From the NCBI RefSeq assembly GCF_009617975.1, contig NZ_CP040089.1, forward strand, positions 90,001-122,000: DNA of 32,000 nucleotides, read 5' to 3'. Position numbers and translations under genes: made by a program. A model generated the notes under the pieces. The model ran no database searches, had not been told where the DNA came from, and worked only from the letters and a program-made list of their open reading frames with translations. This document shows positions 6,254 through 27,015 of the stretch, piece by piece. Source of the DNA: Candidatus Nanohalobium constans. GTDB taxonomy: Archaea; Nanohalarchaeota; Nanosalinia; Nanosalinales; Nanosalinaceae. Position 1 is the stretch's first letter. Every line of letters starts with the position of its first letter.

Positions 6254-6577
6254 ATGCCACGAACAGGAGACAAAAACTTAAGACTTCCATGTACAATTCC
6301 TTCTTGTATGAGCTGGATGGACGAACTCCCTGAACAAGTACAGGAATCAATGGACGACCTACTACTCGAAACAGAACAACACGAAGAAACCTACATGGAC
6401 GCAGAAAACGCGCCAATAGGTCAAATATGGGTAGCAATGGCACAAATGAACAAAAGAATCCAAAAACTAGAGGATCTCGTCCAGGCACAGAGAACAGCAC
6501 TCAAAGAAATGGATGTAGAAGTAGAAGTCGACAAACACCTCGACAAAGATTTGAAAGAAAGCCTGAAAAGATATTAA
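6254..6577 (+). CDS. Small acidic coiled-coil hypothetical protein (true start probably ATG 6308 or 6317)
   Basis: Acidic composition matches the rest of the proteome. The overlapping minus-strand ORF 6219-6500 is Arg/Phe/Leu-rich and atypical. An AT-rich box at about 6240-6253 sits too close to 6254 to serve that start. Confidence 0.4.
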   Translation: MPRTGDKNLRLPCTIPSCMSWMDELPEQVQESMDDLLLETEQHEETYMDAENAPIGQIWVAMAQMNKRIQKLEDLVQAQRTALKEMDVEVEVDKHLDKDLKESLKRY

Positions 6578-6597
6578 GAAGGAAGTTTGGAGAATCT

Positions 6598-9375
6598 TTA
6601 CTCCATTACAATTGCAGGCTTACCTGGCTCTGCTCTATCTGCTTTACCTTCGTCAGATCTTTCCTCAGCTTCAATGATAACTTCGGCATCGAATTCTTCT
6701 TTCCAGCGGCTTTCGTTGGCTTCTAATGCTTCAATCTCTGTTCTTTGTTCCATCAACTGATTTCTGAATTTGCCAGGATTTTCGAAGGCATCCTGTACTT
6801 TCTGATTGACTGTGTCAGCGTGCTGTTTAAATCCTGCGTTGATGGTCTTTCCTGTTATTGCGCCTACATCGCCGAGGTCCAGGTTTTCTTCAATTTCCTG
6901 GAATGCTTCGTACTTCCAGTCTGCTGCTCGGATTACTTTGATTTTCGCTGGTTCTGAATCAACCATTTCCTGGATCTCTCTGATGTCGCTGGCTACTCTG
7001 TCAAAGTATTCGTCTATCTTCTCTGCCTCCTCGTCAAGAAGCTCTTCATCGACTTTAGGCCAGTCAGAGTTGTAAAGGAAGCCTTCATCAATCTTGTTCC
7101 ATAGTTCGTCTCCGAGATGAGGAGCGAAAGGCGCTACAAGTTTAATCAGGGTCTTAACTCCTTCAGTGAATATTGCAGGGTCAGCATCTCTCTGCTTGTA
7201 CCAGTAAAGCTTTGTCAGGAGTTTGTCAACTTCTCCTGCAGCCAAGTTGAACTCGTAGTTGTCGTTGTATTCTGTTACATTTTCTTTGGCTCTCTGAATT
7301 CTGCTGGATACTATACTGTCCTCAAGTTTTGCGTCCTCAAGACTTGCTTCTTGCTCTGTTAGTAAATCCTCGTTCTCAGTGACGAGCCTCTCAATTCTTT
7401 CTAGCATGTCGTGTGATGCCTGAACTCCGTCCTTCGACCAGTCTAGCTCTTTGCTTGGATGTGAAGCACTCAAGATGAATAATCGGGCTGTGTCTGCTCC
7501 ATACTCATCTACAAGTTCTGAAGGCCGTACGACATTGTTCTTAGATTTGGACATCTTGATGGTCTCGACTTCAACCTCTCTGCCGCATTTGCTACAGATA
7601 TTTTCGTCTTCGATTTCTTCAGGATACATCCAGCCGTGTTCAGGGCATTTGTAGGCAGGGTGGTTGACCATGCCCTGTGTCAACAGTTTTTCGAATGGCT
7701 CATCGTCTTCAACCATTCCCTGGTCTCTGAGGAACTTCTGGAAGAATCTTGCATAGATAAGATGCATTGTGGCGTGTTCTATCCCGCCTACATATTGGTC
7801 TACATTCATCCAGTAGTCTGCTGCATCCTCTTCGAAAGGAGCATCTTCGAAATCTGGTGAGCAGTATCTTAGGAAGTACCATGAGGAGTTGATGAATGTA
7901 TCCATCGTGTCGGTTTCTCTTTCTGCCTTTCCTCCACATTCAGGGCATTCTGTTTCCATGAAGCTGTCAGAAGTTTCGATAGGGTTACCTCTACCTGTGA
8001 ATTCCACATCTTCTGGTAGTTCGACAGGTAAGTCTTCTTCAGGAACTGGTACTGCTCCGCATTCGTCACAGTAGACTACGGGTATCGGTGTTCCCCAGTA
8101 ACGCTGCCTGGAGATCAGCCAGTCACGCAGCTTGTAATTAACATCTTCTTCACCAATTTCTTTCTCTTCTAATCTTTCTATTACAGTTTTGATAGCTTCT
8201 TCTTTATCCAAGTCGTTGAGGAAGTCCGAATTGATATGGTCTCCGTCTCCTTCCCAGGCGCCGTCTTCCCCAAAACTGTGGTCTTCAGCAGGTTCTACAA
8301 CAGTTTGAACATCTATTTCATGCTCTTGGGCAAATTCAAAGTCTCTCTGGTCATGTGCAGGAACTGCCATAATAGCACCGGTTCCGGCACCTTCAAGTAC
8401 GAATTCCGCTACATAGATTGGTATTTCTTCGTCGTTGAACGGATTTTCCGCGTATCTGCCAGTGAATACTCCTGCCTTGGATTTCTCCTCCCTTTCCTCG
8501 TCGTCCTTCTGCTTTGCTACCTCAATGTAATCTGCTACTTCTTCGTTTTCTTCTGCTATTTCTTCGGCTAGTTCATGTTCTGGTGCCAAGGCCATGAATG
8601 TGGCTCCGAATATCGTGTCTGGTCTTGTAGTAAATACTTCAAGTTCTCTGCCTTGTTTTAGCGGGAAGTTTATTCTTGCTCCTGTACTTCTTCCGATCCA
8701 GTTCTCCTGCATCTCTCTTACCTTGTTAGGCCAGCCGTCGAGCTGTTCAAGATCGGCGACAAGCTCATCAGCATAATCGGTTATAGCGAGCTTCCACTGT
8801 TCCATCTCCTTATTCTCGTTTACCTCTGAATCGCATCTCCAGCAAAGACCATCTTCAACTTGCTCGTCCGCTAAAACTGTTTCACAGCTTGGACACCAGT
8901 TGACTTCTGCTTCATCACGGTATGCTATGCCTTCTTCAAGCATTTTCTGGAAAATCCATTGGTCCCATTTGTAGTATTCTGGTTCGCAGGTTGTAACTTC
9001 TCTATCCCAGTCTAGGGAGAATCCAAGTCGTTTGAACTCTTCTTTCATGTCGCTGATGCAGTCCAAAGTCCACTCTCCGGGATTAATGTCTCGGTCGATA
9101 GCTGCGTTTTCTGCTGGCATTCCGAATGCGTCCCAGCCCATAGGATGCATCACATTATAGCCTTGCATCGACTTGAAACGGGCGTAGACATCTGAGAGGG
9201 AGAAAGCTCTTCCGTGGCCCATGTGCATTCGTCCAGAAGGATATGGGAACATGTCCAGGATGTATTTCTTTTCTTTATCTTCGTCTTTCTCGGCTTTGTG
9301 AAGGTTGGCTTCTTCCCATTTTTTCTGCCATTTTTGCTCTATCTGTTTGAGTCTTTCTGCGAATTCTTGGGCCAT
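6598..9375 (-). CDS. leuS: Leucyl-tRNA synthetase
   Basis: Class I HIGH-type motif (PYPSGRMHMGHGRAF), KMSKS (IKMSKSKNN), CP1 editing region, 925 aa. Confidence 0.95.
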   Translation of the reverse strand: MAQEFAERLKQIEQKWQKKWEEANLHKAEKDEDKEKKYILDMFPYPSGRMHMGHGRAFSLSDVYARFKSMQGYNVMHPMGWDAFGMPAENAAIDRDINPGEWTLDCISDMKEEFKRLGFSLDWDREVTTCEPEYYKWDQWIFQKMLEEGIAYRDEAEVNWCPSCETVLADEQVEDGLCWRCDSEVNENKEMEQWKLAITDYADELVADLEQLDGWPNKVREMQENWIGRSTGARINFPLKQGRELEVFTTRPDTIFGATFMALAPEHELAEEIAEENEEVADYIEVAKQKDDEEREEKSKAGVFTGRYAENPFNDEEIPIYVAEFVLEGAGTGAIMAVPAHDQRDFEFAQEHEIDVQTVVEPAEDHSFGEDGAWEGDGDHINSDFLNDLDKEEAIKTVIERLEEKEIGEEDVNYKLRDWLISRQRYWGTPIPVVYCDECGAVPVPEEDLPVELPEDVEFTGRGNPIETSDSFMETECPECGGKAERETDTMDTFINSSWYFLRYCSPDFEDAPFEEDAADYWMNVDQYVGGIEHATMHLIYARFFQKFLRDQGMVEDDEPFEKLLTQGMVNHPAYKCPEHGWMYPEEIEDENICSKCGREVEVETIKMSKSKNNVVRPSELVDEYGADTARLFILSASHPSKELDWSKDGVQASHDMLERIERLVTENEDLLTEQEASLEDAKLEDSIVSSRIQRAKENVTEYNDNYEFNLAAGEVDKLLTKLYWYKQRDADPAIFTEGVKTLIKLVAPFAPHLGDELWNKIDEGFLYNSDWPKVDEELLDEEAEKIDEYFDRVASDIREIQEMVDSEPAKIKVIRAADWKYEAFQEIEENLDLGDVGAITGKTINAGFKQHADTVNQKVQDAFENPGKFRNQLMEQRTEIEALEANESRWKEEFDAEVIIEAEERSDEGKADRAEPGKPAIVME

Positions 9376-9437
9376 GTTCGGCTTTTTATCTACAACTTAT
9401 TTGAATTTGTCAGTCTCGGGGAAGTGACCCTCGCTAG

Positions 9438-9447
9438 TATTTTAAAG
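9438..9447 (+). promoter_or_regulatory. TATA-like box (TATTTTAAAG) about 30 nt upstream of the first MinD-like ATG
   Basis: Position and composition only. Confidence 0.3.
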
Positions 9448-9472
9448 GCTGGATTATAATCTTGCACATACA

Positions 9473-10240
9473 ATGACCCGATTGATATGTGTGAGCAGTG
9501 GCAAGGGAGGGGTCGGAAAAACCACGACAACAGCAAATATAGGAGCTGCACTGAGCCAGTTTGGGGCTGATACGGTGGTTCTAGACGCAAATCTTACTAA
9601 CCCAAACCTAGGATTCCACATAGGAATACCACTATACCCTAAGACGCTGCACGATGTTCTCAAAGGAGACGCACATATCACAGAAGCAATGTACATCCAT
9701 GACTCTGGTCTAAGAGTTGTACCTGCAGGACTATCTGTTGAAGATCTTAGAGATACTTCTCCAGAAAACTTATCTGATGTACTTCTGGATACTGTCGGTG
9801 AACCGGACTTCGTCCTTGTAGACTCGGCCGCAGGACTTGGAAACGAATCTATCAATGCTATTGAAGCTTCTGATGAGGTTATGATTGTAACTAATCCTAA
9901 TCTTCCTGCAGTAACAGATGCTTTGAAGACAGTGAATGTTGCTGAGGAAGCAGGTACTGAGATCGCAGGAGTAGTCCTGAATATGGTTAAAGATCATGAT
10001 TCTGAACTTGACAAAGAAGAAGTCGAGTCAATGATCGGCTACGAGGTTCTGATGGAGGTTCCTCATCACGAGAAGGTTGAGGAAGCTCTTTCAGCCAAGA
10101 AACCTGTTGTTCATCATGCACCAGATCATCATGTGTCTGAAAGGTTCAAGAAAGTCGCTGCGGATCTTGCAGAGCTCGAATATGAGCCTGATCTGGATGA
10201 GGATGGTTTTTTGCAGAGTTTGTTTGGCAGGTTCAGATAA
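9473..10240 (+). CDS. MinD/ParA-family P-loop ATPase (archaeal MinD-like), copy 1
   Basis: Deviant Walker A SSGKGGVGKTTTTANIG; VLVDSAAG Walker B region; 255 aa. Confidence 0.85.
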   Translation: MTRLICVSSGKGGVGKTTTTANIGAALSQFGADTVVLDANLTNPNLGFHIGIPLYPKTLHDVLKGDAHITEAMYIHDSGLRVVPAGLSVEDLRDTSPENLSDVLLDTVGEPDFVLVDSAAGLGNESINAIEASDEVMIVTNPNLPAVTDALKTVNVAEEAGTEIAGVVLNMVKDHDSELDKEEVESMIGYEVLMEVPHHEKVEEALSAKKPVVHHAPDHHVSERFKKVAADLAELEYEPDLDEDGFLQSLFGRFR

Positions 10241-10281
10241 GTGTATAAGTGGTTTTTTATTGAAGCTTTGAGAAAAGTGAA

Positions 10282-11046
10282 TTGATGACCCGTATTATTT
10301 CTGTTGTCTCGGGAAAAGGTGGTGTCGGCAAAACCACTGTAACAGCCAATCTAGGAACAGAACTGGCCAAACAGGATCACGATGTGCTGATTATTGACGG
10401 AAACTTTTCCGGGGCCAACATTTCACAACACTTCGGACTCGGATTCCAGGAAGTATCACTAAACGATGTTCTCAATGGGGAAGCATACATCACACAGGCA
10501 GTCTCCAAACACAGTGAAGGAGTATCTGTTCTTCCAGCAAGTATATTAGACTTTAACGCCGACGCAGAAAAGCTAAGGCATTCTATAGTAGACTTCCTAG
10601 GCGATAAAGATTTTGTATTAATTGATACTGCGGCAGGAGTAGGAGATGAAGTCGAAGCAGGTATACAGGCCTCCGATGAAGTACTTCTAGTATCCGAACC
10701 AGAACTTCCTGCGTTGACGAATGCACTGGGTGCAAAGAAACTTGCGGAACAACTAGACAGAGATGTCCTCGGTTTAGCTCTAAACAGTGTCAGAGATGAA
10801 CAATCAGAAGTCCAGCACGAAGATATCAGAGATCTGATTGAAGAGGAAATAATAGCTGAAATACCTGATCACCAGCATGTAAGAGAAGGAATAGCATTGA
10901 GAGAACCGGTGGTAAGCTACAAACCAAACTCTAGACCTTCGAACAGGATTGAAGACCTGGCATACAGAATCAAAGGACAGGAGCCTCCACAGAGAGGACT
11001 TCAAGAGAGACTGGTTGAAAGAGTAAACGATTTCCAACTTTTCTAG
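10282..11046 (+). CDS. MinD/ParA-family P-loop ATPase, copy 2 (start more likely ATG 10285)
   Basis: VSGKGGVGKTTVTANLG; VLIDTAAG; collinear with copy 1 over the full length. Confidence 0.85.
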   Translation: MMTRIISVVSGKGGVGKTTVTANLGTELAKQDHDVLIIDGNFSGANISQHFGLGFQEVSLNDVLNGEAYITQAVSKHSEGVSVLPASILDFNADAEKLRHSIVDFLGDKDFVLIDTAAGVGDEVEAGIQASDEVLLVSEPELPALTNALGAKKLAEQLDRDVLGLALNSVRDEQSEVQHEDIRDLIEEEIIAEIPDHQHVREGIALREPVVSYKPNSRPSNRIEDLAYRIKGQEPPQRGLQERLVERVNDFQLF

Positions 11047-11098
11047 GCCATCTTACTTTTCCGAAGAGTATAAACCGGAGCCTTGATAATTTTTCTCT

Positions 11099-11617
11099 AT
11101 GACTGATACCAAGCCGTATGAGCAGTATTTGTGGAGTCCTAAAAGAGCTGAATACGAGGCTAAGGAAATCCCTGAAGACTTAGATTGTATCTTCTGTGCG
11201 CAGGCAGACGGAGATGACAGGGTTTCATTCCTGCCAGTGTACGAAGACGACTTCTTGATGGTTGAACTCAATATTTTCCCATATAACACCGGTCACCTGA
11301 TGGTCGTACCGAAGAGACATGTCAACTCGATGACAGATTTAAGCGACGAAGAGAGAAACAGATTGTTCTCTATGGTTCAGAGGGTTGAAGAACTTCAGAG
11401 AGAAGCTGTTGACCCGGCAGGAATCGATGTAGGTATGAACATTGGAAAAGCGGCTGGAGAATCGATTCCACATCTGCATGTGCAGCTTGTCCCTATCTAC
11501 GAGAAGGATAGAGGGTTCATGGAGACCAGTTTGGATACTAAGGTCATGAAGGAGTCACTGAAGGACACTCAGGAAAAATACAAGGAGCACGCTGAAATCC
11601 TGGATGAGTACTGGTGA
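11099..11617 (+). CDS. HIT-superfamily nucleotide transferase/phosphorylase (Ap4A-phosphorylase-like branch)
   Basis: CIFC zinc-knuckle-like motif, LNIFPYNTGHLMVVPKRH, and triad variant HLHVQLVP (HxHxQ). Confidence 0.75.
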   Translation: MTDTKPYEQYLWSPKRAEYEAKEIPEDLDCIFCAQADGDDRVSFLPVYEDDFLMVELNIFPYNTGHLMVVPKRHVNSMTDLSDEERNRLFSMVQRVEELQREAVDPAGIDVGMNIGKAAGESIPHLHVQLVPIYEKDRGFMETSLDTKVMKESLKDTQEKYKEHAEILDEYW

Positions 11618-22392: not shown

Positions 22393-22845
22393 ATGTCAAA
22401 TGAAAACAGAATTGAAAGAGAAATACCGTACGGGAAAAAACTTGTAATAAAAGAGAGAAATCTGGAACAGGCAGTAGAGGACATGAATCAGCAATTTGAA
22501 TCCTTTATCGAAGATGGAGAAGAATCAGGTGTGGTTGTAGGATTTGAAGATCCTGAAAAAATAAGGCAGATCTTAACTCCTAAGAGAAGAGAATTAATGA
22601 GCGCCATAATATCTGCAGAGCCAGAAAGCATAAGCCAATTAGCAGACATAACAGATAGAGGAATTACAGAAGTACACAGAGACCTAGAAATACTGAAAGA
22701 AAATAAACTAGTCTACATCGAAGGAGAAGAAGTCAACGGCAAAGCCAAGAAACCAGTAGTACCCTACTCAGACATAGAAATCAATTACAACCTGAAAAGC
22801 AGCTTGATGAGTAATAAAGAAGTGAAAGACTTTAAAACAGCTTAG
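22393..22845 (+). CDS. Winged-HTH DNA-binding protein (HVO_A0114/TumA-like putative antitoxin/regulator)
   Basis: VVGFEDPEKIRQILTPKRRELMSAIISAEPESISQLADITDRGITEVHRDLEILKENKLVYIE..KAKKPVVPYSDIEI matches the pattern of this haloarchaeal regulator family. Confidence 0.55.
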   Translation: MSNENRIEREIPYGKKLVIKERNLEQAVEDMNQQFESFIEDGEESGVVVGFEDPEKIRQILTPKRRELMSAIISAEPESISQLADITDRGITEVHRDLEILKENKLVYIEGEEVNGKAKKPVVPYSDIEINYNLKSSLMSNKEVKDFKTA

Positions 22846-22899: not shown

Positions 22900-22930
22900 G
22901 GCATTTACTCTGATGCTGTGGAGTGAATAA
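22900..22930 (+). repeat. Copy 2 of the duplicated gene end: orphan remnant that still encodes GIYSDAVE* with only synonymous changes
   Basis: GGCATTTACTCTGATGCTGTGGAGTGAATAA versus copy 1. The differences are ATC/ATT, TAT/TAC, GTT/GTG, GAA/GAG, GGA/GGC and TAA/TGA. Possible weaker extension back to about 22882 (GAACAAA..TCT). Confidence 0.65.
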
Positions 22931-22934
22931 TACA

Positions 22935-22946
22935 GGTTTTAAATCC
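22935..22946 (+). promoter_or_regulatory. TATA/BRE-like box (GGTTTTAAATCC) upstream of the DGR target gene
   Basis: Near-identical to GGTTTAAATCC at 30122-30132; an ATG at 22968 lies about 27 nt downstream of the box centre. Confidence 0.4.
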
Positions 22947-22998
22947 GGTATTCTCCAACATGTACACATGAGTACGCAACTAGAATCATCACCTCGAG

Positions 22999-24243
22999 GT
23001 GACGAAACATCGAAGTGTCACACACACACACGAACTTCTGAATAAGTCTAAGGGCCAGTCGGCTATTGAGTATTTGACTACTTATGGTTGGATGTTGTTG
23101 GTTATTGCTATTGTTGGTGGTGCTGTTTTTACTACTGTTCAAGGTAGTTCTAGTTTGGATTCTAGTGGTTTTGATGCGGTTAGTGGTGTTGCTTTTGTTG
23201 ATGGTGGTTTAACGAGTGATAATACTTTTCAGATGCGTCTTCGTAATCAGGAAGCCGAAGAAATGACGGTAGAAAAAATAACTCTAACCAATGAAGCAGG
23301 AAACAAAGTCGTTGCCCGACCAGGCAAAACTCTGCCAGTCGGAGAAGAAAAAACATTTAATACAATAGGCTTAACTGAAACTGGAGGACAAAATAGTGTT
23401 AATGTTGAAATTACTTATGATACTGGTGGTTTGAATAATTTAGCGGTTAATGGCAGTATCACCGGTGCCTTCAGCCTTGACACTGAGAGGGCTGAGCCTG
23501 GAAACGGCGAATGGGAGTTCGTTGATGTCTCTGAAGTCAATCAGTCAACTGTTGATACCAGTGAAATGTCTGACTTCTATATTATGAAGTATGAGGCTTC
23601 TCGGAGTGATGCTAATTCTACTGACGCAGGTTCTGAATCAACTCCTGTTTCTCAGCAAGGAGTCGTTCCATGGGTTCAAATCAGTCAGAACGAGGCTATT
23701 GATAAGTGTCAGCAGGCAGGCTTCAATTTACCGAGTAACAGGCAGTGGCAGGCTGCAACAATGGCAGAAATAGGAAACTCTTCTACACAACCACTCGGTA
23801 ATACGAATAATAATGAGGACAGTAATGGGGATCAGGGAACGATAGATCCAACAAGTCATGACTGGAACAGTGACGGTGAGAATGATAGGACTTTGACTGG
23901 GAGTGGTCCGGATACTTGGGCTAACACGATTGGAGTCCATGATTTGAATGGTAATGTCTGGGAGTGGACACGGACTGTTGTTGATCAAAGTCATCCGATG
24001 CATAAGGGCGGTAGTAATGGTCAGGTCTCGTCTTGGAACAACAATGGCTATCCAGAAACACTCGGCAGCAGTAATTCTGACTTTGGAGGCGACTATTACT
24101 GGTCTTCGAGTGATGATAATCGTGCCGTTCAACGCGGTGGTGGCGCGCGCAATGGTGCGCGCGCCGGAGTGTTCTCCCTGACCCTGCACAACGCTCCTTC
24201 GCGCTCGCTCAGGTACATCGGGTTCCGGTGTTCTTTTTCCTGA
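22999..24243 (+). CDS. DGR variable (target) protein: class III signal peptide/type IV pilin-like N-terminus plus C-terminal FGE-sulfatase/C-type-lectin-fold domain carrying the VR
   Basis: N-terminus NKSKGQSAIEYLTTYGWMLLVIAIVGGAVFTTV (archaeal prepilin-type KGQ..EYL plus hydrophobic helix). C-terminus FYIMKYEASR, VPWVQISQNEAIDKC, LPSNRQWQAA, HDLNGNVWEWT, RGGG....IGFRC (FGE/CLec hallmarks). The last 38 codons are the VR. The only plausible in-frame start is GTG. Confidence 0.85.
   Translation: MTKHRSVTHTHELLNKSKGQSAIEYLTTYGWMLLVIAIVGGAVFTTVQGSSSLDSSGFDAVSGVAFVDGGLTSDNTFQMRLRNQEAEEMTVEKITLTNEAGNKVVARPGKTLPVGEEKTFNTIGLTETGGQNSVNVEITYDTGGLNNLAVNGSITGAFSLDTERAEPGNGEWEFVDVSEVNQSTVDTSEMSDFYIMKYEASRSDANSTDAGSESTPVSQQGVVPWVQISQNEAIDKCQQAGFNLPSNRQWQAATMAEIGNSSTQPLGNTNNNEDSNGDQGTIDPTSHDWNSDGENDRTLTGSGPDTWANTIGVHDLNGNVWEWTRTVVDQSHPMHKGGSNGQVSSWNNNGYPETLGSSNSDFGGDYYWSSSDDNRAVQRGGGARNGARAGVFSLTLHNAPSRSLRYIGFRCSFS
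23019..23031 (+). repeat. (CA)6C dinucleotide microsatellite inside the 5' end of the DGR target gene
   Basis: CACACACACACAC, read directly from the sequence; encodes THTH in the annotated frame. Confidence 0.9.
24121..24234 (+). repeat. DGR variable repeat (VR), in frame at the 3' end of the target gene
   Basis: 114 bp collinear with 25007-25120 (offset 886). 15 mismatches at TR adenines and 1 at a TR cytosine (synonymous GGA/GGC). An identical GC-rich 3' block CATCGGGTTCCGGTGT is the IMH candidate. Confidence 0.9.
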
Positions 24244-24250
24244 TTGCTGA

Positions 24251-24646
24251 GTGCTGGGTTGCGAGGTGATCAGAATGGGTGAAGTGGATTTTACTGGTTT
24301 GCAGGCGTATGAGGAGGTTTCTCCTGCGGTTGTGAAAGGATTAAAGTTGCTGAGAGACTTGGATGATTATGATACTTATTGGGATTTTATTTTGAAAGGT
24401 CTGCGGCGTGACTTAGCTGAATCCCTACCCCTGCTCGCTGATGGGTATAACCGGTATCATTATGATGAGAAGGCTGAAGCTTACAAAAAAGTCAGGAGTA
24501 AGCTGTCTCGTTGTCAGTCCTGTTTCCTGATTTTGAAGGATATCGGGGTTTTAACGAACGAGGATGTAGATTCAATCTGCCGTAGTTTGGAAGGTGGTAT
24601 TGGACGCCTTAATGGTTTGATCAGTCGAATGGAGGATGATGAGTGA
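24251..24646 (+). CDS. DGR-associated hypothetical protein, possibly a divergent second Avd-like helical bundle (start more likely ATG 24275)
   Basis: Lies between the target gene and avd. Its TGA overlaps the avd ATG (TGATG). The C-terminal half ..YKKVRSKLSRCQSCFLILKDIGVLTNEDVDSICRSLEGGIGRLNGLI parallels avd ..LRKADRELEKTKIFFRLSRDLGFISSGQHENISEDLVELGKMLGGWI. Confidence 0.5.
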   Translation: MLGCEVIRMGEVDFTGLQAYEEVSPAVVKGLKLLRDLDDYDTYWDFILKGLRRDLAESLPLLADGYNRYHYDEKAEAYKKVRSKLSRCQSCFLILKDIGVLTNEDVDSICRSLEGGIGRLNGLISRMEDDE

Positions 24647-24978
24647 TGCAGGATCTTAAACTGTTTCAGAAAAGCTATGATTTTTATGAGGAAGTTTATC
24701 CAACGCTGAAGAACTTTCCCCAATCGGAGCGTTTTGTTATGGTTCAGAAGATTCAGGATTCTTTCTTGGAGTTTATTTCTCACATTATTTCAGCTCGAAA
24801 AGCCAGTAACACGCTTCACCACTTGAGGAAGGCAGATAGGGAATTAGAAAAGACGAAGATTTTCTTCCGTCTTTCCCGTGATCTCGGCTTCATCTCCTCT
24901 GGACAACATGAAAATATTTCTGAGGATTTAGTTGAGCTAGGTAAGATGCTTGGAGGCTGGATTGAAAATGAAAAATGA
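24643..24978 (+). CDS. avd: Accessory variability determinant (Avd; four-helix-bundle, 23S-rRNA-IVS-protein family); start likely ATG 24646
   Basis: About 110 aa, helical, LKLFQKSYDFYEEVYPTLKNFPQSERFVMVQKIQDS... and C-terminal ELGKMLGGWI (compare BPP-1 Avd ..VGRILGSWI); located immediately upstream of the TR. Confidence 0.8.
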   Translation: MMQDLKLFQKSYDFYEEVYPTLKNFPQSERFVMVQKIQDSFLEFISHIISARKASNTLHHLRKADRELEKTKIFFRLSRDLGFISSGQHENISEDLVELGKMLGGWIENEK

Positions 24979-25006
24979 TATTAAGGCAGATGCTGTTTTC
25001 GGAACT

Positions 25007-25120
25007 CGTGCCGTTCAACGCGGTGGTAACGCGAACAATGGTGCAAACGCCGGCGTGTTCTCCATGAACCTGAACAACGCTCCTTCGAACTCGAACAGGA
25101 ACATCGGGTTCCGGTGTCCT
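25007..25120 (+). repeat. DGR template repeat (TR), non-coding template RNA region
   Basis: In the VR frame it contains 9 AAC codons plus AAT; 8 of the 9 AAC codons differ in the VR (GGC, CGC, CGC, ACC, CAC, CGC, CTC, TAC). Confidence 0.9.
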
Positions 25121-25127
25121 CCCAACT

Positions 25128-25150
25128 ACTTCAAACATTCTGTTTGGAGT
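25128..25150 (+). other. Predicted RNA hairpin immediately 3' of the TR (10-bp stem including one G-U, 3-nt loop)
   Basis: ACTTCAAACA-TTC-TGTTTGGAGT; paired by eye. Confidence 0.3.
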
Positions 25151-25363
25151 TCGAGCAAATCCTTGATTTGCGACAGGCGAGAACTCAGTCATCCAATTTC
25201 TTTGGGATGCTGGGGCAAAGCCAACCGGAGGGAGAACTTCGGTATCTGCCAGCCCAACCAACACGATTGTGTGGAGGCGAAAAATTCTCTTACCAAAAAA
25301 TGGGCGACAGCCAGTAAACCATTGATGGTTGAAAGCTGAAGCCCATCTACATCTACTTTCATC

Positions 25364-26362
25364 ATGGTAAACAGCTTTTCAAAAGACTTTGAAACTGTAG
25401 CTGGGTTTCAACCGCTTTACAAAGGCTACAAGAAAGCAAGGAAGGGCAAGCGTTACAGCAGTGAGGTATTAGCTTTTTCTGAAAGCCTTGAAGACAACCT
25501 TTTCGATCTCTCAAACGATCTTTTGACACAGAGTTACTGCCCTAAGGGTTTCAAGGAGTTTAAACTGTTTGATCCAAAGGAAAGAGAGATTAAAGCCCCT
25601 TATTTCCGTGACAGGATAGTTCATAGAAGCCTTCACATATCTCTGGAACCTTTCTTCGATAAAAGGTTTATAGAGCATTCTTATGCGTGTAGAAAAGGTA
25701 AAGGCACGCATGCCGGTGTTGATAAGGCACAAGAATTTATGAACAAGAGTGATGCCGAATACTTTCTGAAATGTGATGTTGAAGACTACTTTGGCTCCGT
25801 TGATCATAAAATCCTAACTGATATGTTGGATAGGAAGATTAGAGATGATAGGATAGTTGATTTAGTTAGAACTATTTTAGCGGATTCTGGAGACAAGGGT
25901 ATGCCTATCGGCACTCTTTACAGCCAGTTATTCGCCAATATCTATCTTAACAAGTTTGATCATTTTGTAAAACAGTCGCTTCAGGCTGATTACTATGTTC
26001 GTTACATGGACGATTTCGTGTTTTTCAGTGATTCCAAGCAACGGCTTCATCAGTTGAGGGAGGCGTCTAAAGGATTTCTTAGGAAGGAGCTGGATCTGTC
26101 GCTGCCGTTCTCCAAAACTACTTTAGAACCAATCCAAAAAGGATTGATCTTTCTTGGTTACAGAATCTTTCCAAATCACAGAAAGCTCAGGAAAAGAAAC
26201 AAGCTGGGTTTCAAGGAAAGGCATGGAAAGCAGAGATCAGAGTTACAACGGGGTGAATTGACTTTTTCTGAGTTGAGGGATTCTATTGAGTCTTGGAAAG
26301 GACATGCTGAACACGCAGATACAGAAAACCTGTGTGAAAACTTTCTTGGCAGTTTGAGTTAA
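25364..26362 (+). CDS. DGR-type reverse transcriptase
   Basis: RT motifs FRDRIVHRSL, SYACRKGKGTH, LKCDVEDYFGSVDH, the DGR-diagnostic PIGTLYSQLFANIYLN ([ILV]GxxxSQ), YVRYMDDFVFF (YxDD) and FLGYRIF. Confidence 0.9.
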   Translation: MVNSFSKDFETVAGFQPLYKGYKKARKGKRYSSEVLAFSESLEDNLFDLSNDLLTQSYCPKGFKEFKLFDPKEREIKAPYFRDRIVHRSLHISLEPFFDKRFIEHSYACRKGKGTHAGVDKAQEFMNKSDAEYFLKCDVEDYFGSVDHKILTDMLDRKIRDDRIVDLVRTILADSGDKGMPIGTLYSQLFANIYLNKFDHFVKQSLQADYYVRYMDDFVFFSDSKQRLHQLREASKGFLRKELDLSLPFSKTTLEPIQKGLIFLGYRIFPNHRKLRKRNKLGFKERHGKQRSELQRGELTFSELRDSIESWKGHAEHADTENLCENFLGSLS

Positions 26363-26622
26363 TTTTTTTCAACTTGTTTGAGTCTTTTCTTGATTTTATT
26401 CTCTGCTTCTCCTTCCAGCTCTACTTTTTCTATTTTTCCTTGTTCTGTGAGTTCCAGAATTGCTTCTTCCTTTTTAGTCAGATTTTTCCCTTTATTATCT
26501 TCTTTAAGGTATCCTCTTATGGCTTCTCTTACTACTTCAGACATTGAACTGTAGTATTCTTCTTCTTTCTTCTTTTCAAGATCTTTCCTCATTCCGTCAG
26601 GAACTTCCACACTTAAGGTCAT
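26359..26622 (-). CDS. Ribbon-helix-helix (CopG/Arc-like) DNA-binding protein, antitoxin-like
   Basis: N-terminal beta-strand MTLSVEVPDGM.. followed by SMSEVVREAIRGYL, typical of RHH proteins. Convergent with the RT, with overlapping stops. Confidence 0.65.
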   Translation of the reverse strand: MTLSVEVPDGMRKDLEKKKEEEYYSSMSEVVREAIRGYLKEDNKGKNLTKKEEAILELTEQGKIEKVELEGEAENKIKKRLKQVEKN

Positions 26623-26733: not shown

Positions 26734-27015
26734 ATGGAGTTGGATTATCATAAGGGTGCTGAAAAGGATCTTGATGAGTTGAATGATGAAGTTGAAAGCG
26801 AGGTTAGAGACAAAGTATCTGAGCTTCGGGAGAAGTTGACTTCTCACTCGGATGTCAAATTGATTAATATTGAGGGTCGACCAGTTTTCCGACTGAAAGT
26901 AGGAGAAAGAAACCAAAAACTAGACCATAGGGTTATATTTGATATTAAGAACTCTGATATACTAGTTCTAGCTGTCATCCACAGGGATGAAGGGTACAAC
27001 ACCATTTCTATTTAA
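26734..27015 (+). CDS. RelE/ParE-superfamily toxin-like protein
   Basis: 93 aa; ..AEKDLDEL.., PVFRLKVGE....HRVIFDIKNSDILVLAVIHRDEGY matches the RelE/ParE core pattern (yRlRvGdyRviy.i....i.vl.v.hR...Y). Confidence 0.65.
   Translation: MELDYHKGAEKDLDELNDEVESEVRDKVSELREKLTSHSDVKLINIEGRPVFRLKVGERNQKLDHRVIFDIKNSDILVLAVIHRDEGYNTISI

Follow-up and report, generated by a model that had tools for sequence, protein, structure and literature searches.

How do two stretches of DNA on one strand, less than a kilobase apart, come to differ almost only where one of them carries an adenine? The question is posed by the window examined here, the 32,000 nucleotides at positions 90,001–122,000 of NZ_CP040089.1 from Candidatus Nanohalobium constans LC1Nh, in which an earlier note, made from the letters alone, had paired a candidate template repeat (TR) with a variable repeat (VR) and read the pair as the signature of mutagenic retrohoming. 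All positions below are those of the window. We conclude with high confidence that the pair belongs to a diversity-generating retroelement (DGR) of N. constans that diversifies a predicted C-type-lectin-fold site in a probably pilin-like surface protein. In support of the retrohoming reading, the window contains each part that a DGR should have. These parts share one strand and follow the canonical order: the target gene, which carries the VR at its 3′ end, avd2, avd, the TR, a spacer and the gene for the reverse transcriptase (RT), all on the plus strand (Table 1).

The DGR of N. constans LC1Nh is real but has been known since 2020. The available text of La Cono et al. (2020, PNAS; PMC7443923, Supplementary Information Fig. 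S12) reports DGR-related sequences in the N. constans genome, assigns the DGR variable proteins to the formylglycine-generating enzyme (FGE) subclass, with the fold of a C-type lectin (CLec), and proposes that the system may mediate how ectosymbiont and host interact. It deals with the same genome and the same genes (QGA80031.1 and QGA80034.1), and its main text mentions neither pilins or pili nor a DGR in Haloplanus. The target and RT in our window are exact matches to proteins of N. constans LC1Nh, the genome of which measures 973,463 bp. Because the element has been published for the same genome, its novelty as such is low; what is added here beyond the 2020 report are VR alleles in related metagenome contigs, the recurrent tandem of Avd2 and Avd, and a cassette in Haloplanus salinus.

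A repeat finder returned an ungapped direct repeat (24120–24234 and 25006–25120, spacing 886), and this result and a base-by-base comparison both bore out the gapless offset that the earlier note had obtained by hand. Between VR 24121–24231 and TR 25007–25117 there are 16 mismatches, 15 of them at TR adenines (25028, 29, 34, 35, 45, 46, 47, 64, 68, 73, 88, 89, 94, 95 and 25100). With 26 adenines in the 111 nt of the TR, this enrichment has a hypergeometric P of 8.1 × 10⁻¹¹; the alignment test that the earlier note had proposed thus found the mismatches concentrated at adenines and not spread evenly over the four bases. Its figure of 16 internal mismatches holds for these bounds, but the interval it gave, reaching to 24234/25120, contains 17 (P = 4 × 10⁻¹⁰), because that interval takes in the boundary mismatch at 24232/25118. 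Its list of the 15 adenine positions was reproduced in full, and a recount gave the same 26 adenines. The same agreement was obtained for the sole mismatch at another base (TR C25054 versus VR A24168), which is synonymous (GGC/GGA), and for the nine AAC codons that the TR carries in the VR frame, eight of which have been altered, to GGC, CGC, CGC, ACC, CAC, CGC, CTC and TAC. The final 16 nt of the two copies (CATCGGGTTCCGGTGT) are identical, and divergence starts right after them (T versus C at 24232/25118), again as described before. The VR ends 12 nt before the target stop codon, and the TR starts 28 nt after the avd stop, between that stop (24978) and the RT start (25364). A search of both strands of the window for further TR or VR copies, scored on non-A positions only and run with the full-length repeat and with 40-nt pieces, found none.

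The mismatch pattern also bears on two explanations that do without error-prone reverse transcription. In the first, an ordinary segmental duplication copied the gene's 3′ end, and neutral divergence or gene conversion with a paralogue elsewhere in the genome (P0006) then shaped the two repeats; at 82% identity to the target, P0006 would indeed be an available recombination partner. Such a history is at odds with mismatches that are limited to one base of one copy (P = 8 × 10⁻¹¹) and comprise all three substitution types, with the independent recurrence of the adenine pattern between the repeats of the Haloplanus salinus cassette (12 of 12 mismatches at A) and of a metagenome contig (L021; 10 of 12), and with the position of the unvaried copy between avd and a DGR-type RT gene in every related cassette. 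A plain duplication is effectively refuted by this base specificity, and we give it next to no credence. In the second explanation, a deaminase or an editing process acted on DNA or RNA, as base-specific changes might suggest. Adenine deamination gives A>G only, whereas the TR-to-VR spectrum contains all three alternative bases, with A>C (7) and A>T (2) outnumbering A>G (6), and Pfam and NCBIfam scans found no deaminase encoded in the cassette. The substitution spectrum refutes such an origin, which we regard as extremely improbable.

The protein encoded downstream of the TR is of the kind that mutagenic retrohoming calls for. Its best solved relative is the RT of the Bordetella phage, bRT (8ub7_A; E = 5 × 10⁻⁵⁴, residues 12–323). 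It carries IGTLYSQ at residues 182–188, matching the DGR RT signature [I/V/L]GxxxSQ (PMC7826257), together with a YMDD box, R74 and Ile182, the counterpart of bRT I181; Arg74 and Ile181 of bRT have been shown experimentally to promote adenine mutagenesis (PMC7826257).

Table 1 Features of the N. constans DGR and of the related Haloplanus salinus cassette. Positions are those of the window unless a contig is named.
Feature	Position	Strand	Description and basis
Target (variable protein), LC1Nh_0123 / QGA80031.1	22999–24243	+	414 amino acids; open reading frame (ORF), Pfam, exact NCBI protein
(CA)6C dinucleotide tract	23019–23031	+	Inside the predicted leader peptide; translated THTH
Putative class III (type IV prepilin-like) signal peptide	23050–23130	+	K18-G19/Q20-S-A-I-E24, then hydrophobic helix YGWMLLVIAIVGGAVF
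VR	24120–24231	+	Last ~37 target codons ahead of the final SFS-stop; repeat finder and base-by-base comparison
VR-specific flank TCTTTTTCCTGATTGCTGAGTGCTG	24232–24256	+	Candidate target-recognition element resembling IMH; alignment of 5 VR downstream regions
avd2	24275–24646	+	123 amino acids, acidic; ATG start at 24275 set by homologues; diverged Avd/23S-rRNA-IVP paralogue
avd	24646–24978	+	110 amino acids; canonical DGR accessory protein
TR	25006–25117	+	Non-coding; 26 adenines; 9 AAC codons in the VR frame
TR–RT spacer	25118–25363	+	246 nt; conserved structured RNA; alignment of 6 cassettes, RNAalifold, pair counts
RT, QGA80034.1	25364–26362	+	332 amino acids; RVT_1, E = 6.6 × 10⁻²⁰; followed by a T7 run at 26363–26369
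Haloplanus salinus cassette (L018)	QPHM01000001.1, 1276509–1293708; cassette at 8001–11319 of this locus		Target 399 amino acids, Avd2 123, Avd 110, TR, RT 331

A comparison of VR alleles across related genomes had been proposed in the earlier note. A contig from the Joint Genome Institute (JGI) whose Avd2 is 99% identical to that of the window (L029) has a VR that differs from the window TR at 19 positions, 18 of them adenines; in a contig that is syntenic with the window and has a 75% identical target (L019), the VR likewise shows 19 mismatches to the window TR, 16 at adenines. Across these three VR alleles (window, L029 and L019), variation in one allele or more affects 24 of the 26 TR adenines, as against 4 of the 85 other positions. 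The three alleles thus differ almost only at TR-adenine sites, lending population-level support to the claim that the element has been active; this evidence for mutagenic retrohoming bears on past, not present-day, activity. Position 25054 fits into the same comparison: it is A in the window VR, T in the VR of L029, and A in three of six related TR alleles, so that the mismatch there is most likely a later A>C change in the window TR after the last homing event, and not an RT error at a cytosine. Were all TR adenines free to vary, the 14 variable codons could specify about 10¹⁴ protein variants, and at the AAC/AAT sites adenine variation cannot yield stop codons. Between L029 and the window (22900–24700), the avd2 DNA is 87–100% identical and the target upstream of the VR only 50–90%; the body of the target appears to evolve, or to be exchanged, much faster than the accessory genes. 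An ORF of 129 amino acids (24950–25339, plus strand), without a Pfam match, runs across the TR because the TR retains the VR reading frame, and most likely is not a gene.

In DGRs, the initiation-of-mutagenic-homing element at the VR 3′ end (IMH) differs from its counterpart at the TR 3′ end (IMH*), and the earlier note had placed a candidate IMH/IMH* boundary at the end of the repeats. Copy-specific flanks in the related cassettes support this placement. In all five related VR copies, from Nanohalobium, Haloplanus and metagenome contigs, the sequence continues from ...GGTGT into TCTYTT(TC)TCCTGATT(G/C)CTG..GCTG, a flank conserved across genera though it codes for only three codons, whereas all six related TR copies continue from ...GGTGT into CCTCC. 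This difference after the shared GC-rich 16 nt supports, by analogy, IMH/IMH* logic. The DNA 3′ of the VR is predicted to form neither a stable hairpin nor a stable cruciform: the fold of 24212–24300 reached −5.2 kcal/mol (z = −0.46), no better than shuffled sequences. A hairpin in this position is a feature of the DGR of Bordetella phage BPP-1 and is not universal among DGRs.

The spacer between the TR and the RT gene holds long invariant blocks and is probably a structured RNA. For six sequences only, and with the structure derived from the same alignment, RNAalifold gave a consensus of 56 pairs in which 97.8% of cells are paired, compared with at most 46% when the partners are slid. Compensatory changes occur in 10 of the pairs, which was reached by 0 of 500 shuffles, mainly in the helices 25184–25194/25205–25214 and 25300–25311/25335–25346. 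The TR-specific CCUCC (25118–25122), which adjoins the TR on its 3′ side, has a predicted pairing partner in the invariant GGAGG (25227–25231) lying 105 nt downstream, and the imperfect palindrome at the TR 3′ end, ACAUCGG-GUU-CCGGUGU (25101–25117), could form a 7-bp RNA hairpin (predicted helix 1); both are invariant in the six cassettes and therefore lack covariation support. The spacer matched no Rfam family.

These parts can be assembled into a mechanism by homology to the BPP-1 system. The genes avd2 and avd, the TR, the spacer and the RT gene would be transcribed together, and the RT, bound to Avd and probably also to Avd2, would use the structured TR–spacer RNA as both template and primer, with the priming nucleotide expected in the invariant GGAGGGAGAACUUCGGU block. 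A complementary DNA of the TR would then be made, with random bases inserted opposite template adenines, and would take the place of the VR at the target gene's 3′ end. This replacement would be directed by the shared GC-rich 16 nt together with the VR-specific flank, and the TR's own CCTCC flank would protect the template.

What would be diversified in this way is the C-terminal end of a protein of three parts, with a pilin-like N terminus, a beta-sandwich module and an FGE-sulfatase/C-type-lectin domain that carries the VR. The FGE-sulfatase family PF03781 covers residues 207–411, including the VR (E = 6 × 10⁻¹³). An AlphaFold2 model of the full target had a predicted local distance difference test score (pLDDT) of 46 and was confident only at the beta-sandwich (residues 52–165), the VR region staying below 50; because the lectin part is so poorly modelled, it is the Pfam match and analogy that place the VR in the binding site. 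A fold search with the model found nothing significant; an archaeal type IV pilus subunit (8fk7) stood at rank 12 with a template-modelling (TM) score of 0.51 and a non-significant E-value of 0.02.

Class III signal peptides have a leader that ends in [KR]-G, followed by Q or A and a hydrophobic helix (the FlaFind-type pattern), and G(−1) and E(+5) also mark bacterial type IV prepilins. At the N terminus of the target, a short charged leader ending in KG (...NKSKG) is followed, across the predicted cleavage site, by the hydrophobic helix of QSAIEYLTTYGWMLLVIAIVGGAVF, and from its G(−1)/E(+5) motif we take this arrangement to be prepilin-like. KGQSAIEYL(T/M)TYGWMLLV is nearly invariant wherever the gene calls of homologues extend that far. 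Relatives of the C-terminal lectin half, some of which are labelled 'flagellin-like' by JGI, have weak Pilin_N matches at their N termini (E = 0.03–0.04 in P0035 and P0037), and a bacterial relative of this half (P0116) carries a true N_methyl prepilin motif (E = 2 × 10⁻⁹). The target is probably a secreted, type IV pilin-like surface protein, and its diversification likely serves to adapt the attachment of an obligate ectosymbiont to changing haloarchaeal host surfaces. Residues 1–145 (22999–23430) are common to dozens of nanohaloarchaeal proteins (P0045–P0086) that have LamG, PKD, Glug or DUF285 C termini instead, and the pilin-like module seems to be a shared scaffold for surface display that has been fitted with different binding domains.

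The start of the target gene differs between annotations. The RefSeq protein WP_217907053.1 (362 amino acids) starts 52 codons later than the GenBank protein QGA80031.1 (414 amino acids), a difference that concerns 22999–23154. In the short form, both the transmembrane helix and the conserved motif KGQSAIEYL are lost, and many metagenomic homologue calls also start at MTYGWMLL; conservation supports the longer, 414-residue form. Within the predicted leader of this form lies the (CA)6C tract, which recurs in the L019 orthologue and as an HTHT string in P0007, P0009, P0018, P0025 and P0034. A one-unit slip would put the gene out of frame, making the tract a possible phase-variation switch; alternatively, if the true start lies elsewhere, it may be a conserved 5′ element. 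The paralogue P0006 is probably a second, remote target, because it is 82% identical to the first and N. constans has a single RT of this clade on record.

Avd is canonical (Pfam bAvd, E = 5.6 × 10⁻²⁴; NCBIfam equivalog DivGenRetAVD, 101 bits with the cutoff at 80) and belongs to a family found in 74% of DGRs (PMC5758913). It is preceded by avd2, the stop codon of which overlaps the avd start (TGATG). With PF05635 and PF22296 as the reference families, the best Pfam match of Avd2, to 23S_rRNA_IVP (PF05635), stays below threshold (E = 0.013; 16 bits, where 33.8 are required). An exhaustive profile search, however, gathered 50 representative clusters, and 21 of 32 aligned members match PF05635 (best 1 × 10⁻³⁷); compared with the window's own Avd by hhalign, Avd2 scored a probability of 64% (E = 6.6 × 10⁻⁵). 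The AlphaFold2 model of Avd2 is a four-helix bundle (helices 17–28, 37–55, 63–89 and 95–122) with a pLDDT of 81 and a predicted TM score of 0.76. Its best fold matches in the PDB are IVP-family proteins and Avd chains (2gsc, 2rld, 8ub7 and 4dwl) at TM scores of 0.6–0.7, with Foldseek E-values that are non-significant, so the family assignment rests on the profile evidence. Neither protein is basic (pI 4.76 for Avd2 and 6.42 for Avd, versus 9.5 for a typical Avd; PMC5758913), and on pI Avd2 thus departs from the basic character (about 9.5) of the RT-binding pentamer family.

Several observations point to a joint function of the two proteins. Between Nanohalobium and Haloplanus, Avd2 is the best conserved protein of the cassette (86% identity, compared with 84% for Avd, 71% for the RT and 50% for the target). 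In all four distant relatives examined (L025, L026, L027 and L028), an avd2 gene lies directly upstream of a canonical bAvd gene; L027 is a complete DGR with identical gene order although its RT is only 41% identical to that of the window. Searching with an Avd2-family hidden Markov model found no such gene beside the bacterial DGR RTs of loci L002–L016, and Wu et al. (2018, PMC5758913) recorded a single DGR with two avd genes among 372. We infer that Avd2 is a paralogue of Avd that has diverged from it and acts in concert with it; Avd2 might take part in a hetero-oligomeric accessory ring. The overlap of stop and start codons, the top conservation of Avd2 and its tandem occurrence in four of four relatives point towards acidic Avd2 as an obligatory partner of Avd in a distinct DGR sub-lineage, one that moved between nanohaloarchaeal ectosymbionts and Haloplanus salinus. 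We put this forward tentatively, as a proposal slightly more apt to fail than to hold. If true, a symbiont and a haloarchaeon of its host kind both hypervary homologous pilin-like lectins.

Several points weigh against a DGR that diversifies the lectin site of a pilin-like protein in N. constans: the TR/VR data of the window come from one consensus genome; the non-A mismatch at 25054 reflects drift of the TR or the VR after the most recent homing; the VR, unlike that of BPP-1, is not followed by a stable hairpin or cruciform; the lectin-domain model is poor (pLDDT 46); the N-terminal 52 amino acids have no Pfam match at E-values up to 10 (PF04021, PF07790 and PF07963); and the host-attachment role is one that we infer. 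The first three of these, together with the lack of basic Avd proteins (pI 6.4 and 4.8 versus 9.5), would also suit a fossil, that is, a DGR that diversified its VR in the past and is now inactive, the TR/VR difference being a frozen record. Yet none of the four ORFs is disrupted, the RT retains the residues for catalysis and for adenine mutagenesis, Avd2 and Avd bear a cross-phylum identity of 84–86% that implies purifying selection, and the spacer RNA has undergone compensatory changes. Moreover, L029, whose Avd2 is nearly identical, carries a different VR allele, with all but one of its differences at TR adenines. Low pI values are expected for the proteomes of salt-in halophiles, and those of Avd and Avd2 are accordingly unremarkable. 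We therefore consider a fossil unlikely and retain the reading of a DGR that diversifies a lectin-fold site.

The presence of a closely similar cassette in Haloplanus salinus raises the question of how the element is distributed. That cassette is embedded in DNA of low GC content (43–54% GC, versus 60–73% to its right) that extends over at least ~12 kb, runs past the left end of the examined locus, also holds integrase and Orc1/Cdc6 genes, and is part of a 2.97-Mb contig. These island features indicate, from sequence, a horizontal transfer of the DGR between a nanohaloarchaeal lineage and a haloarchaeon (class Halobacteria). In the literature searched we found no description of a DGR in Haloplanus or other Halobacteria. 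The RT clade comprises about 38 clusters at 54% identity or more to the window RT, set apart from the next relatives (47% or less); all members with a named source are Nanohalobium or Nanohaloarchaea, and all are of hypersaline origin where a source is given. The locus can therefore no longer be called absent from other nanohaloarchaea, as was stated in 2020. The nearest relatives from non-halophiles in the collections searched are bacterial and phage RTs at ~40–43% identity, and the phage and plasmid collections, searched for a vector of the Haloplanus transfer, contained nothing above 43% identity.

Set beside the prototype, the BPP-1 DGR (mtd–avd–TR–brt; architecture B1 of Wu et al. 2018, PMC5758913), the N. 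constans element is a textbook DGR. It shares with BPP-1 the order target, avd, TR, RT; an RT that aligns over its full length and has R74, I181, [I/V/L]GxxxSQ and YMDD in common; a target with a C-type-lectin-fold domain (here predicted from a Pfam match) and the VR at its C terminus; an AAC-rich TR; a GC-rich shared 3′ end succeeded by copy-specific flanks, in line with IMH/IMH* logic; and a structured RNA downstream of the TR. The spacer resembles what is reportedly the spacer (Sp) region of the BPP-1 DGR RNA, which is said to span about 140 nt, compared with 246 nt in N. constans. Unlike the phage-borne BPP-1 element, the N. constans DGR is chromosomal and archaeal, has an extra Avd paralogue upstream of avd, encodes Avd proteins that are acidic to neutral, and acts on a pilin-like target instead of a tail fibre. 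The DGRs of DPANN archaea, as the studies of Paul et al. (2015, 2017) and Handa et al. (2016, BMC Struct Biol 16:13) are cited, resemble it in belonging to episymbiotic archaea with reduced genomes and in having CLec-fold variable proteins with a proposed role in host attachment; the N. constans RT clade (at least 54% identity) is set apart from its next relatives (at most 47%). Follow-up would be worthwhile on the pairing of Avd2 with Avd, on the lectin target with its pilin-like features, on the spacer RNA and its covariation, and on the island in Haloplanus. Because N. constans is among the small number of DPANN archaea grown stably in co-culture with a host, according to La Cono et al. (2020, PMC7443923), its DGR is experimentally accessible, a rare archaeal case in which activity, target function and accessory proteins are open to experiment.

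The genes that flank the cassette in the window are those of archaeal housekeeping and glycogen metabolism (L10P, L1, FtsZ, LeuRS, ADP-PFK/GK, TIM, glycogen synthase, GH57 and GH15). Scans of the whole window found no Rfam family match and, with ARAGORN, no tRNA or tmRNA genes. An HVO_A0114-family helix-turn-helix (HTH) gene lies upstream of the target at 22393–22845, and its product and the glycogen synthase are likewise exact matches to N. constans LC1Nh proteins. Together with the DGR block, this gene breaks up the glycogen-metabolism gene cluster, which suggests an inserted island, though the GC content there is not deviant. Directly 3′ of the RT gene are a ribbon-helix-helix gene (26359–26622, minus strand) and a ParE-family toxin gene (26734–27015, plus strand), and L019, which is syntenic with the window, has a PemK toxin pair (6401–6955) upstream of its cassette.

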